A stretch of DNA of 41,620 nt from a virus (IMGVR_UViG_2713896897_000009), one strand, 5' to 3'; numbered from the stretch's first letter, positions 1 to 4,787 are shown. The notes: generated from the letters alone by a model not told the origin. Numbers and translations are program-made.

Positions 1-3000
1 TCAGACGGCATGAGGAGTAAATATCAGTATGCTCTCTCTCATGCTTAGCGCCACTGAATGCCACCGCCGGAATAACAATCTGCCGGTCAAACGGCTGATC
101 GTCATAAACCCTGACGGTAATGGTCCCTGATGGCCACCGCTCCGGTGCCCGGAGTCCCGCGGAAAAGCCTTACCCACTGTTTTGACAATATCGCCTTCAA
201 TCTGGTTGGCTGACAGTTTCCCCTTAATCTGACAGTTCTCATTAATTGTGACATTGTTGAGCGTCCCGGCGTTCGCATTCACACTGCCACTGATATCTGC
301 ATTTTTAGCGGTCAGCTTTCCGTCCGGTGTCAGGGAAAATGCCGGAGGATTACCGCCGCTGGTAATGGTGGGAGCCGTCAGGCGTTTCAGGAACACGTCG
401 TTCATGAATATCTGATCGCCCTGACCAACAAACATCGGCTTTGTGTTGCCATTCGCAGGATTAATCATCGCAATCCTGTCTGCCGCCAGCAGCACCTGAC
501 TCTGCATTCCTGCTGGCGTATTCTCAATACCGGCACCGATACCCGCAATATAAAGGCGTCCGTCCTTCATCTGTTGCAGCTTCACAGCCCACATGCTGTT
601 CAGATTATTATTTGTATCAACCTGAACCTTCTGTATCTGCTGGATCGCTGCACTCTGGTCTTCCAGTTTCTTATTGACGGTCTGCGTGATTTCATTACTG
701 ACATCCGTGATGGACGTTCTGATTTCCGCCAGGTCAGGCGCAAGCTGACCGTTATCAATCTGAGTCCACAACTCCTGAGCCAGATGGGTTTTCCCTATCT
801 CTCCTTTGAAAAAATCCAGATAGCCGGATGCATCATCACTCGGCTGGCCAACAGCCTCCACAAATGCCGATTTGCCAACGGTGTTCACACTGCGGATATA
901 AAAGTAATAATCATGGCCCGGTTTGATATTGATACTGGCAGCTATCCAGTACAGCGCCGTGCCAAGATAGCGGGCTGTGGTTTCAACCTGCCTGATATCA
1001 GCAATCCGCTTTTCCGAGAACCAGAACTCAAACTGTACCGTCGGATCATAAACCGCAAGATGCGGCGTGGCGGTTATCTGAAAATAGCCCGGTGTCAGCT
1101 CAATCCGAGACGGCGCTGCCGGTGCGGCAATCCGGAACGATACCGATGCCGGATCGCCCTGCTGTCCCCACGCATTTACCGCCCGGACTGTCAACCTGTA
1201 GTTCCCCGGCGCCAGTTGCGTGAAGCGGTATGTGGTTTCTGTCGTCCTGGCCGTGCTGACCAGCCGCTCACTGCCGTCATCCGCTGCCACGGTCAGGCGA
1301 AGCAGGAAGCTCACGCCCTTCACCACCTTCGGCGTGTCCCAGCGCGCCAGCACCTGATATTCCCCGCTGTCTGCGGTGACTTCGGCGGTCAGGTGCTGCA
1401 CCGCTGGCGGCGTGACACCATTCACCGTGCCGCTCTGGTCGCCGTCAAAGTGCGCCCCGTTATCCACGATGGCTTCTTTTTCCGGCACGTGCTGCACCGC
1501 CGTGATGGCAAAGGTGCCGTCCGTGTTTTCCCGGATGGAGACACAGCGGAACAGGCGACGACGCAGTGACGGCAGGGAGAGTCCCCATACACCGTATGTC
1601 TCCACACCATCAGGCAGGGTGCTGACCTGTATCCGGTCCGGCGCGGGGTGTGCAGTGATGGCCACGCTCACCGGCTTACCGCTGCCGTTAATCAGGTTCA
1701 CCGTGGCGGCACCTGTCTCCGGCAGGGTCACCTCACGGTCCAGTGTCAGGGTGCGGCTGGCGGCATCGATGGACAGGATACGTCCGCCGGTCATGGTCCC
1801 GGCATAGTCGTTATCACAGATTTCAATAATGTCACCGGGTGTGTGACGCAGCCCCTGTGACCCGAGCGTGAAATCCACCGTCTGCGTTTCCAGCAGTCCG
1901 GTCTTTATCACCCACAGCCCGGCACGGTGGGCCTGACCGCGACTGGTGCAGCCGAACGCATCCATCTTCAGCAGGTTGCGCCCGTAGCGCAGTATGGCTT
2001 CCGGGTCTTCCACCAGTTCCGTGGAGGTCTGCCAGCCGTTCTGCGGGTCGGTGTAATTCACCTCCACCGCCGTGTGGCGGTCCTTCAGGGCGCTGAAGCT
2101 GTAGCGAAACCCCACGCCGTTATCATCCACCACCACATCGCTGTTGGTGTACGGCCACACCACATCCGACGGGCGGTCCTGAACGAACGTCAGCGTCTGG
2201 CCATTCCATACCGGCATACAGCGCATCGCCGAGCAGAAATCACTGAGCACATCCCATGCCTTACGCTGTTGTGACAGGTACGCATTAAAGGTCATCCGCG
2301 GCTCGGTCCCCCCGAAACCATCCGGCACCGTCTGGTCGCAGTACTGCGCAATGGCATACAGCGCCCATTTGTCCACGTCTGCCGCCCCCAGACGTTTTCC
2401 CATCCCGTAGCGCGGGTGAGTCAGCATGTCCCACAGGCACCAGGCCGGGTTGTTGCTGTATGCCGGTTTCAGACTGCCGTCCCAGATACCGCTGTACGTG
2501 CGTTTTTCCGGGTCATAGTTTGACGGTACCTGAATGATACGACCACGGATATGGTAGTTCACCGTCATCTGCTGGCCGCCGAACTGCTCCGCATCCACCT
2601 GCAGCCCCACAATGGCCGTGTTCGGGTAGCACTGTTTCACATCGATGATTTCGGTGTATGACGACCACAGCGTTCTGTTCTGCAGCTGGTCCGTGGTGCT
2701 GTCCGCTGTCTCCCGGACCATCCGGATGTTAAAAGGACGGGGAGGCAGATTATCCAGAATCACCGACGCCAGAAACTGCGAGGTGGTCTTGCCGTTAATG
2801 GTGACATCATTTTCCGTCACCCAGTTACCGTTACGCTGCAACTGAATCAGCAGTCGGACAGAAGAGGGATTACGGTCGCCCTTTGAGGTGGTCTCCAACA
2901 GTGACTGCACCCCGAAGGTGACCCGCAGGCGGTCAATGTTCGCGGACGTAATGGTGCGCGTCACCGGCTTTGCCTTCGTCACTTCCACGCCCAGTGCGGT

Positions 3001-3261
3001 TTCCGCCCCGGAGGACTCAAAGCCTTCAGGTGGTGTCTGCTCCTGCTCCCCGGCGCGCCAGACCGCTGTCACACCATGTATCACAGGATTACCGTCCGTG
3101 TCCGTCAGCGGGGTTTTGTTCACCAGGATACTCTGCAGCCCCTTCACCGGACCTTCAATCGGCCCTTCACCAATGGCATCAATCACGCTCATCATCTGCG
3201 TGGACTTAAGATTGTCCTTTGCCTCAACCGGCGTGTGCGCCCTGCCGCCACCTTTACCCAT
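1..3261 (-). CDS. J: Tail tip / host-specificity protein J (lambda J-like); the last ~50 codons are out of frame relative to the J-homologous frame
   Basis: 1086-aa ORF with long stretches matching lambda J as recalled (MGKG..[14 protein letters not shown].., [54 protein letters not shown]). After AFPR (nt 168-157) homology continues in another frame and runs off the left edge. Confidence 0.9.
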
Positions 3262-3394
3262 AATGTTCCTCTCAATTGGTATTATTAATCGCAGTGATAG
3301 GATATTGCACAGCTATTGCGCGATATCATCAGAACGCTGTTTGTTACCCTGTAACCAGCAAGCTCAGTCTGTTAACGGAATTAATGAGGGTTTT

Positions 3395-3922
3395 ATGAAA
3401 TGTAAAATCATTGCTGCCATTGCCATGCTGACAGCAGCATCATGCGGATACGCAGCAGAACAGGAAGTCCCAATGAACCTTGTCAGTGCTGACGGAAAAG
3501 AAGTCAGCATTGGAAAAATAACCATTCAGGAGACCCCCTACGGTCTGCTGTTCACACCAGCCCTTCACTCTCTGTCTGAAGGCATTCATGGTTTTCATGT
3601 GCACGAAAAAGGAAATTGCGCCCCGGCACTGAAAGACGGAAAACCGGTCGCAGCATTATCGGCTGGCGGTCACTTTGACCCGAAAAACACCGGCAAACAT
3701 CTTGGCCCCTGGTCTCCGGATGGACACCCGGGCGACCTCCCTGCGCTGTTCGTGACGCATGACGGAAAAGCGAACTACCCGGTCCTGGCCCCGAGACTGA
3801 ACTCATTAAAAGAGATTAAAGGGCGTTCTCTCATGCTTCATGCTGGCGGTGATAACCATCATGACCATCCGGAGCCCCTGGGCGGTGGTGGTGCGAGAAT
3901 GGCCTGCGGCATCATTCAATAA
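3395..3922 (+). CDS. sodC: Periplasmic Cu/Zn superoxide dismutase SodC (prophage moron)
   Basis: ATG at 3395; signal peptide [18 protein letters not shown]; SodC motifs [37 protein letters not shown]; 175 aa. Confidence 0.9.
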
Positions 3923-3929
3923 TCAGTCA

Positions 3930-3960
3930 GGTAAGGGGCGGGCCCCTTACCTTTATTCCT
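3930..3960 (+). terminator. Rho-independent terminator downstream of sodC
   Basis: 9-bp GC-rich stem GGTAAGGGG/CCCCTTACC with 4-nt loop, followed by TTTATT. Confidence 0.6.
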
Positions 3961-4070
3961 CAGGACGATAAATCCTTTCTCCCAGAAAAGAACGGCACAT
4001 CCTCCCTCTCTGAGTTAATGTTTTTGTCGTGACATAAGAATAATTCCTTACACTCAATCTTCGTAACGCT

Positions 4071-4106
4071 CCCGCAGTTCCGCAACTCTGCGGGATTTTT
4101 TCGCTT
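4071..4106 (+). terminator. Second plus-strand intrinsic terminator between sodC and gene I
   Basis: Stem CCCGCAG/CTGCGGG with 10-nt loop followed by ATTTTTTCGCTTTT; the T-run is only on the plus strand. Confidence 0.5.
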
Positions 4107-4787
4107 TTATGCCTGCCGCCCGATAACCACCACCTTCCCGTCACCGCCTTCATCACGGGTACTGATGTCCTGGGAGATTCGCCGTGAGCCAACCAGCATT
4201 TCACCGTAAGGCACCGGCATCGGGTTCCCCTGAGCAATCATGTTGTCCAGTGAGGAAAAGTACGTGTTCTGTTTACCGTTATCCGTCGCCCTGTACTCCG
4301 GTGTTTTTGCCTTCGGGGCCAGCATCTGAGCCACACCACCCAGTATCATGCTGGCCCCCAGTGAAAACAGCATCGTGGTGGCAGAAAAACCACCGGCTGC
4401 CAGGGCTGAACCCCATAACGCCATTGATGCCCCGGCAGTGAAGAAAGAGCCCACGATGGCTGCCGCCCCCAGCACAATCTGCAGTCCACCTTTTCCGGCC
4501 CCGGCCAGTCGCGGCACAATGTGGATGACCGTTCCCTCACCCAGCTGTTCGTGAAGACGGGCGTACACCGCCTCCGGTGCCGTGTCCTCACCGCGAATAC
4601 GTATCTGGTACCAGCCTTCGTTCATCTGACGGCGGAATCCCGGCATCTGCATCGACAGGGCACGGATGGCTTCCGCTGCCGTGTTCACATACAGGCTGAG
4701 GCGGCGGCCAAATCGTTGTAAATCCCCGTGAAGGCAGATGCGTGCCAGTGGCGGTGACGCCAGACAGAATGCGTTCGTCGTTGCCAT
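4107..4787 (-). CDS. I: Tail assembly protein I
   Basis: ATG at 4787; N-terminus ARICLxGDLQRFGRR and position downstream of K match lambda I; C-terminal hydrophobic Gly/Ala-rich region. Confidence 0.85.
   Translation of the reverse strand: MATTNAFCLASPPLARICLHGDLQRFGRRLSLYVNTAAEAIRALSMQMPGFRRQMNEGWYQIRIRGEDTAPEAVYARLHEQLGEGTVIHIVPRLAGAGKGGLQIVLGAAAIVGSFFTAGASMALWGSALAAGGFSATTMLFSLGASMILGGVAQMLAPKAKTPEYRATDNGKQNTYFSSLDNMIAQGNPMPVPYGEMLVGSRRISQDISTRDEGGDGKVVVIGRQA

Follow-up and report, generated by a model that had tools for sequence, protein, structure and literature searches.

Among the closest described relatives of the locus reported here are the genes sodC-F1 and sodC-F2, which reside in the Escherichia coli O157:H7 prophages CP-933R and CP-933V and encode Cu,Zn-superoxide dismutases (SODs) (D'Orazio et al. 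2008, PMC2569942). The SodC-F protein has been detected in O157 lysogens in exponential phase, in stationary phase, and under anaerobiosis. It is a dimeric enzyme that, relative to the chromosomal SodC, is enriched inside Caco-2 cells, and its AASC lipobox gives rise to both soluble and lipid-anchored forms through dual processing by signal peptidases I and II (SpI/SpII). Moreover, a lacZ fusion to the 299 bp 5' of the sodC-F start codon was assayed in wild-type and rpoS backgrounds, and the gene was reported not to be RpoS-regulated, as data not shown (PMC2569942). Strain Sakai prophage Sp4 likewise has a copy, called sodC_1. Here, we focus on a sodC gene and a small RNA (sRNA) homologue that lie between the tail genes I and J of the viral DNA IMGVR_UViG_2713896897_000009, whose full 41,620 nucleotides we call the window.

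The sRNA homologue also has described relatives. In E2348/69, a strain of enteropathogenic E. coli (EPEC), PasB is annotated as an 83-nt RNA at 1466343-1466261 on the minus strand (Pearl Mizrahi et al. 2021, PMC8550237, Table S6). PasB, which was detected by northern blotting with the probe AATCCCGCAGTGATCGCGGAGCT, is strongly Hfq-dependent and takes part in 37 RIL-seq interactions (PMC8550237). It has also been placed in an operon of phage structural genes and described as widespread (Zhu, Shabalina & Storz 2026, preprint). In strain Sakai, EcOnc22, EcOnc23, and EcOnc24 are homologous Hfq-CRAC peaks on the plus strand of Sp15, Sp14, and Sp11, respectively; EcOnc22 migrates at about 85 nt on northern blots and is destabilized in a delta-hfq mutant (Tree et al. 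2014, Table S2, PMC4104026).

In the window, the tail genes J, I, K, L, M, and H, identified by open reading frames (ORFs) and Pfam domains, all lie on the minus strand. The J start codon (3259-3261) and the I stop codon (4107-4109) bound a gap of 845 bp, 3262-4106. A sequence-only reading of this DNA had interpreted the gap as a single 845-bp insertion carrying sodC, insulated from its neighbors by two terminators, here called T1 (proximal to sodC) and T2 (distal). Our analysis leads to a different interpretation, to which we assign a probability of roughly 0.85: the spacer harbors two separate, known accessory elements, a sodC-F moron and a promoter-less copy of a PasB/EcOnc22-family gene, both antisense to the late operon.

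The borders of the first element come from comparison of I–J junctions. In Stx2c and Stx1a phages, and in Sakai Sp11, Sp14, and Sp15, I and J are about 240 bp apart and no sodC is present. Alignment of these sodC-less spacers with the window reveals divergence directly 5' of the J start codon, and homology resumes at TCTCTG, at about 4005-4010. The sodC-specific part is, then, only 3262 to about 4006, with 4007-4106 common to sodC-less relatives: the junction comparison upholds a discrete sodC module and revises the borders and the 845-bp size originally given to it. The cassette replaces about 131 bp of ancestral spacer that contained the J ribosome-binding site, a late-strand hairpin, and the pasB promoter. 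It is 99.7% identical to its counterparts in O157 644-PT8 and in Stx2a phage EH2201, compared with 90.7% identity to EH2201 in the flanking gene J and 92.3% in I; judged by this contrast, the cassette is a discrete module. Its GC content is 45-51% at the edges and rises to 60% inside sodC, with the tail genes J, I, and K at 52-66%. A query comprising 3956-4106 matches 1412 E. coli genomes at 3148 places. Only 539 of the genomes include the sodC-side 51 nt; the remainder (about 870, without sodC there) match from position 52 of the query on. Between conserved I and J, sodC is present in some related phages and absent from others, as expected of a moron.

Evidence for the second element comes from a covariance model, R1, built exclusively from 24 sodC-less members of the family, including PasB and the Sp15 copy. 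The model matches the window at 4010-4102 with 86.8 bits and E = 3e-15 over model positions 1-97 of 97; the next match has E = 0.54. By this measure, 4010-4102, T2 included, is a full-length homologue of the Hfq-dependent sRNA PasB/EcOnc22-24, and the earlier guess that a small RNA could lie between the two terminators was essentially right. The published PasB probe points to the same hairpin: its reverse complement, AGCTCCGCGATCACTGCGGGATT, equals the loop and 3' arm of the T2-type family hairpin. Positions agree as well. In E2348/69 (NC_011601), where both tail genes are on the plus strand, PasB ends at 1466261, between the end of I (1466255) and the start of gpJ (1466496). In the current Sakai record, where the tail genes are on the minus strand, the I–J gaps are 2902691-2902930 (Sp15), 2676622-2676861 (Sp14), and 2166672-2166911 (Sp11).

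Placement of the EcOnc peaks in these gaps required a correction of about +140 nt, as the coordinates in PMC4104026 refer to an older version of the Sakai genome. The shift was anchored on AgvB, located at 1941920-1941981 by Rfam versus 1941783-1941835 in the paper. The second anchor was EcOnc15 (StxS), which the same shift puts against the tR' hairpin upstream of stx1A, the site of the known 3' end of StxS. After correction, the EcOnc22 peak covers the homologue of window positions of about 4030-4095. An apparent location of EcOnc22 beside the J start was an artefact of genome version and disappeared with the shift. We also considered an anti-sRNA of the AgvB/AsxR type and rejected it: those RNAs are encoded at the PR' moron site rather than in the tail operon, and the Rfam AgvB model has no match in the window.

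Loss of the promoter is seen by comparing the two kinds of copies. Upstream of the sRNA body, sodC-less copies have TTCACA-N16-TATAAT, a match of 11/12 in E2348/69 and of 10/12 in the Stx2c phage. A -10-like hexamer occupies the same offset in all 89 of the 89 anchorable sodC-less copies, and 19 further sodC-less copies form a subtype with TATCAT. In the window, and in 15/15 sodC-linked copies sampled, this hexamer has become ATCCTCCC. The right junction of the cassette falls exactly at the -10 hexamer, and thus the sRNA copy is left without its native promoter. A replacement promoter was sought in 3923-4010, and nothing better than 7/12 was found.

The features of the locus are as follows, with strands given relative to the window.

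1..3261, minus strand: J, tail tip/host-specificity gene (ORF; Pfam J domains)
3262..4006 (right end approximate), plus strand: sodC-specific cassette (comparison with sodC-bearing and sodC-less phages)
3276..3303, plus strand: candidate sodC promoter (8/12 match plus TG)
3343..3355, no strand assigned: inverted repeat GTTAC-N3-GTAAC (5-bp arms)
3395..3922, plus strand: sodC, of the sodC-F type, 175 aa (Pfam PF00080, PDB matches, ligands)
3929..3958, plus strand: T1, terminator of sodC (10-bp GC-rich stem, 4-nt loop, U tract UUAUUC)
4010..4102, plus strand: promoter-less PasB/EcOnc22-24 homologue, antisense to the I–J intercistronic late mRNA (covariance model)
4070..4101, plus strand: T2, PasB-family terminator (UCCCGCAG / CUGCGGGA stem, 10-nt variable loop, U6)
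4107..4787, minus strand: I, tail assembly gene (ORF; Pfam Lambda_tail_I)

The sodC ORF is intact. Specifically, it begins with ATG at 3395 (not 3401), preceded by a GAGG ribosome-binding site at 3386-3389, and ends with a stop codon at 3920-3922, after 175 codons. The product matches the Pfam family Sod_Cu (PF00080) at profile positions 3-133 of 133, with 111.1 bits against a cutoff of 28.9 and E = 7e-32, and its best PDB matches are bacterial Cu,Zn-SODs (E = 4e-62). The claim of a complete Cu/Zn SOD gene, antisense in the I–J gap, is borne out. In an alignment with the SodC proteins of O157, O121, Fels-1, and Gifsy-2, H68, H70, H93, H102, H111, D114, H149, C75/C171, and R168 are invariant; in this family, these residues serve as the Cu/Zn ligands, the disulfide cysteines, and the catalytic Arg. 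As a putative export signal, the sequence has a hydrophobic N-terminus with the lipobox AASC at residues 14-17.

The protein is 99% identical to the annotated SodC WP_000649829.1, and the surrounding 1.2-kb region (1201 bp) is 98.7% identical to sequences annotated sodC in O157, O145, O121, and other E. coli. At least 80% of this region is covered in 545 of 5426 complete E. coli genomes, and two Stx2a phages also have it. We conclude that the sodC of the window is the already characterized sodC-F1/F2 of E. coli O157-type lambdoid prophages and is not new. The window protein has Pro at residue 112 (codon 3728-3730; DGH-P-GDLP), between the Zn ligands His111 and Asp114, a position occupied by Leu in the SodC of O157 644-PT8, O121 RM8352, Fels-1, and Gifsy-2. 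Pro112 is a natural allele, because the exact 51-nt sequence that specifies it occurs in 94 E. coli genomes, PA20 and 86-24 among them. It possibly corresponds to the published single-residue difference between F1 and F2.

Downstream of sodC, both terminators proposed earlier are present on the plus strand, each a hairpin followed by a T-run, and the minus strand has a T-run at neither; by sequence, they are unidirectional. The T1 hairpin (3929-3952) has 10 bp, a predicted energy of -17.4 kcal/mol, z = -2.2, and the tail UUAUUCCU. T1 lies inside the conserved sodC cassette and is the gene's own terminator. The T2 hairpin (4070-4095) has 8 bp, -14.4 kcal/mol, and a U6 tail that ends at 4101, 5 nt before the I stop codon. 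A terminator scan of the 1.2 kb returned five terminator-like sites against 1.1 expected. In the sequence-only reading, T2 served as a second insulator of sodC. Instead, T2 terminates an sRNA gene of the PasB/EcOnc22 family that was there before the cassette, and this terminator also occurs where sodC is absent. The T2 stem is identical in all family members seen, and the loop varies (13 variants in 24 aligned sequences). An IMG/VR pattern scan, pooled with loci collected earlier, yielded 58 unique hairpin-bearing variants, which include a few chance matches unrelated to the family. When the window and 3200-4200 were scanned with Rfam, 3956-4106 was assigned to no family. The only Rfam match near T1 is the Salmonella sRNA STnc400 at 3886-3962 on the plus strand, with 23 bits against a threshold of 80 bits; it covers the 3' end of sodC together with T1 and is due to the terminator hairpin alone.

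The insulation argument further held that the terminators, being unidirectional, spare late transcription into J, and that I and J are adjacent in lambda. The latter is inexact: lambda has a 60-nt gap between them (positions 746-805 of our lambda locus, L137) with a hairpin inside it, AAACCGCC-tgcg-GGCGGTTT followed by TGTCATTT on the late strand. Fels-1 has a late-strand hairpin of the same type just before J (L010, 2874-2893). The sodC-less relatives have CAGGCAYCC..GGRTGCCTG followed by TTGTTTTTG, also on the late strand, and the variants differ by compensatory changes; in PasB-bearing prophages this hairpin lies at 1704-1727 of L001, 1431-1454 of L131, and about 6745-6766 of L004. The late-strand hairpins before J are thus of two sequence types, the second of which displays the compensatory changes. 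Q-modified polymerase reads through terminators. Late transcription in these phages crosses a co-directional terminator-like hairpin, and therefore nothing in the design requires T1 and T2 to be unidirectional. The window itself lacks a late-strand hairpin, having lost it to the sodC cassette.

Upstream of sodC, a strict sigma-70 scan of 3100-4300 found no promoter. The best candidate, which falls below the threshold of that scan, is TTGGTA (3276-3281)-N16 followed by an extended -10, TGaTAGGAT, with the -10 hexamer at 3298-3303. If this candidate is used, transcription would start near 3310. It is located inside the 299-bp fragment of the published lacZ fusion (PMC2569942). A proposed operator, TGTTAC..GTAACA, does not exist as given: GTAACA is absent, and the actual repeat is the GTTAC-N3-GTAAC listed above. 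Shuffles of the 133-bp upstream region produce 1.5 such repeats on average, with a probability of at least one of 0.71. The repeat put forward as an operator is thus at chance level, and the region in which it lies has no alignment with the upstream regions of the Fels-1 or Gifsy-2 sodC genes. A promoter or operator conserved with Fels-1 and Gifsy-2 was considered and set aside, the upstream regions being unalignable past the J ribosome-binding site. A PhoP box was considered as well, by analogy with Salmonella sodCI; only weak matches were obtained 5' of sodC (3-4 mismatches of 12). These matches, at 3378-3395, overlap the start codon and its ribosome-binding site, and none of them falls on the inverted repeat.

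The analysis shows what the genes are, where the cassette begins and ends, to which family the sRNA copy belongs, and that its promoter sequence is gone. The following sequence of events would connect them. The cassette would have arrived by replacing the J-proximal 131 bp or so of the old spacer, the sRNA promoter included. In the lysogen, sodC-F would be transcribed from a promoter region within 3262-3394 that possibly reaches into the start of J, and SodC would be translated, exported, partly lipid-anchored, and would remove periplasmic superoxide. The published expression of sodC-F in O157 lysogens (PMC2569942) fits the first of these steps and runs counter to the refutation envisaged earlier, a sodC silent in the lysogen. 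Transcription of sodC would end mainly at T1. Transcripts that read past T1 would continue across the 51-nt spacer, then through the promoter-less PasB-like body, and stop at T2. The sRNA body is likely silent or weakly made in the sodC-linked arrangement. Consistent with such silencing, the published Hfq-CRAC table contains peaks only for the three promoter-bearing Sakai copies (Sp11/14/15), so that the absent peaks of the sodC-linked copies lend it weak support.

Several points weigh against this interpretation. The U tract of T1 is interrupted, so that a substantial share of transcripts could run on into the sRNA body, and a promoter-like site inside that body, TTAATG-N18-AATAAT at 4015-4044 (8/12), could generate a truncated RNA. 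The Hfq-CRAC table is thresholded, which makes the lack of peaks for the sodC-linked Sakai copies (Sp4/Sp10) weak negative evidence. The T2 stem, being invariant, has no covariation support, and part of the sample, that from IMG/VR, was retrieved by a pattern that fixes the terminator stem; family members retrieved by BLAST have the same stem. The annotated 83-nt PasB and the start predicted from TATAAT put the family's 5' end at places about 15 nt apart, and it is uncertain to that extent. Finally, what we say about transcripts at the window locus rests on sequence and on published relatives.

Three other accounts of the locus merit consideration. The first element and the second could have come as one, the whole 845 bp being a single insertion in which T1 and T2 were co-selected as a double unidirectional insulator that protects I and passes late transcription. 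Both hairpins are indeed on the sodC strand, with no T-run on the late strand, and T2 in practice would stop any read-through before I. We nevertheless regard this account as very improbable: T2, with about 60 nt preceding it and its own promoter, is present in about 870 genomes that have no sodC there, and the T2 module corresponds to a published sRNA. Moreover, lambda, Fels-1, and the sodC-less relatives all have late-strand terminator-like hairpins in this gap, so late transcription can pass co-directional terminators, and in Fels-1, sodCIII lies 53 bp from I with no T2. Alternatively, the sodC-bearing arrangement could be ancestral and the sodC-less spacers products of deletion. Fels-1 demonstrates that a sodC between I and J is old, as the proteins are only 60% identical, and the J ribosome-binding region of the window resembles that of Fels-1. 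The diversity runs the other way, however. Spacers without sodC are far more diverse, with 47 unique sRNA variants and tandem arrays, and they possess a complete promoter and a conserved late-strand hairpin, neither of which exists in the sodC form; the sodC-linked sRNA bodies represent one narrow subtype that also exists with the promoter. We give this history almost no credence.

A third account concerns the fate of the sRNA copy, which could be functional despite its missing promoter, either as an Hfq-bound, 3'-UTR-derived RNA made through a leaky T1 and cut out of the sodC transcript, or from a weak internal promoter. The imperfect U tract of T1, the internal 8/12 site, the intact body and terminator with their full-length match of 86.8 bits, and the retention of the module in all of the roughly 540 sodC-bearing genomes are what one would expect if so. 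We consider function unlikely all the same. Three promoter-bearing Sakai copies have Hfq-CRAC peaks and none is listed for the sodC-linked ones, and, with 99.7% identity of the cassette across hosts, the module may have been retained simply because it is young. In its boldest form, the idea is that the cassette captured a resident PasB-family gene by promoter replacement, such that the sRNA is now made only as a read-through 3'-UTR product of sodC-F. We find this doubtful. Were it true, an Hfq sRNA with dozens of host targets would have been rewired to the host-associated conditions that raise SodC-F, and the locus would exemplify a phage sRNA gene, once independent, that a moron had made into a 3'-UTR sRNA of its own. 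In the searchable literature, we did not find a sodC-pasB linkage or promoter replacement stated, and the term "sodC" is absent from the 2026 PasB preprint.

If the locus combines a sodC-F moron with a promoter-less PasB/EcOnc22-family copy, as we favor, its discovery value is small. Prophage sodC has been studied for its part in fitness and virulence, PasB/EcOnc22 has been catalogued as an sRNA, both elements belong to described families, and their exact arrangement exists in hundreds of sequenced genomes. The gain is a corrected annotation: the I–J spacer is a two-element accessory locus, and its second terminator is the terminator of an sRNA. About 540 E. coli genomes have a promoter-less PasB-family copy, which affects similarity-based counts of PasB and inferences about its expression. 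The analysis also indicates that a lambda-like I–J spacer normally has a late-strand hairpin before J, which the cassette removed.

Additional observations concern the PasB family and the rest of the window. In some I–J gaps (loci L053, L058, L063, and L136), two or three diverged PasB modules form tandem arrays, each copy with its own promoter-like box and terminator. In E2348/69 (L131, 1344-1372), the 11/12 promoter predicts a start about 15 nt upstream of 1466343, the published 5' end of PasB. This offset suggests 5' processing or imprecise annotation of PasB, with a CTGCGTTA..U-run leader in a primary transcript of about 98 nt. In the window, small minus-strand ORFs of 41 and 94 aa in 3953-4237 overlap I and the sRNA. 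The closest relative of the I–J region is O121 RM8352 (L133, 1-13500), whose prophage is integrated beside ssrA and has the type III effector genes espK, espN, and nleL beyond the tail-fibre genes. Compared with the intact 1157-aa gpJ of O121 RM8352, the J ORF of the window is 86% identical up to residue 1037 (..KAFPRDS), with no match thereafter; from about position 150, the ORF runs on out of frame to a stop at positions 1-3. The receptor-binding C-terminus of J is probably frameshifted, and if it is, the prophage may be tail-defective. Elsewhere, Rfam matches at gathering level identify an adjacent pair of minus-strand RNAs, the C4 antisense RNA at 33431-33518 (78.8 bits) and the Hfq-binding RNA isrK at 33543-33619 (58.7 bits), which together look like a P1/P7-type regulatory module in the prophage early region. 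Three tRNA genes, Arg(tct), Arg(tcg), and Met(cat), are clustered at 25648-25899 on the minus strand. In Stx-type lambdoid phages, tRNA clusters of this kind are typically found just downstream of the late-gene antiterminator.

How, then, does the locus compare with what is known? With sodC-F1/F2, the window sodC shares its position between I and J, the upstream 133 bp, T1, and 99% protein identity; it differs by the Pro112 allele and by a T2 loop that is 6 nt shorter, as in O121 RM8352. The Salmonella prophage genes are more distant. Fels-1 sodCIII occupies the same place in the same orientation, antisense between I and J, and Gifsy-2 sodCI is also antisense in the tail operon, but between lom and L. 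These neighbors agree with the earlier view of sodC as a moron antisense to the tail operon, and neither offers a same-strand sodC belonging to the late operon, the arrangement that had been named as contrary evidence. The Fels-1 and Gifsy-2 proteins are only 58-60% identical to the window SodC, and no DNA similarity to the window was detected in their promoter and terminator regions beyond the J ribosome-binding site. That site is where the window resembles Fels-1, in which 53 bp separate sodCIII from I and no PasB module is present.

With PasB and EcOnc22-24, the window copy has in common its location in the I–J gap, its orientation antisense to the tail genes, a 3' end a few nt from the I stop codon, the core ..AAYTCCTTA..TTAATCTTC.., and the CCCGCAG/CTGCGGG-U7 terminator. 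Unlike them, it lacks TTCACA-N16-TATAAT and has sodC and T1 upstream instead. Finally, the cassette resembles the classical morons of lambdoid phages (Juhala et al. 2000, cited in PMC4104026) in being an extra gene between conserved neighbors, with its own terminator, lower-GC edges, a putative promoter region of its own, and probable expression from the prophage. It departs from them in two respects: it is antisense in the tail operon, whereas classical morons are co-directional, and it replaced resident spacer elements rather than simply inserting.

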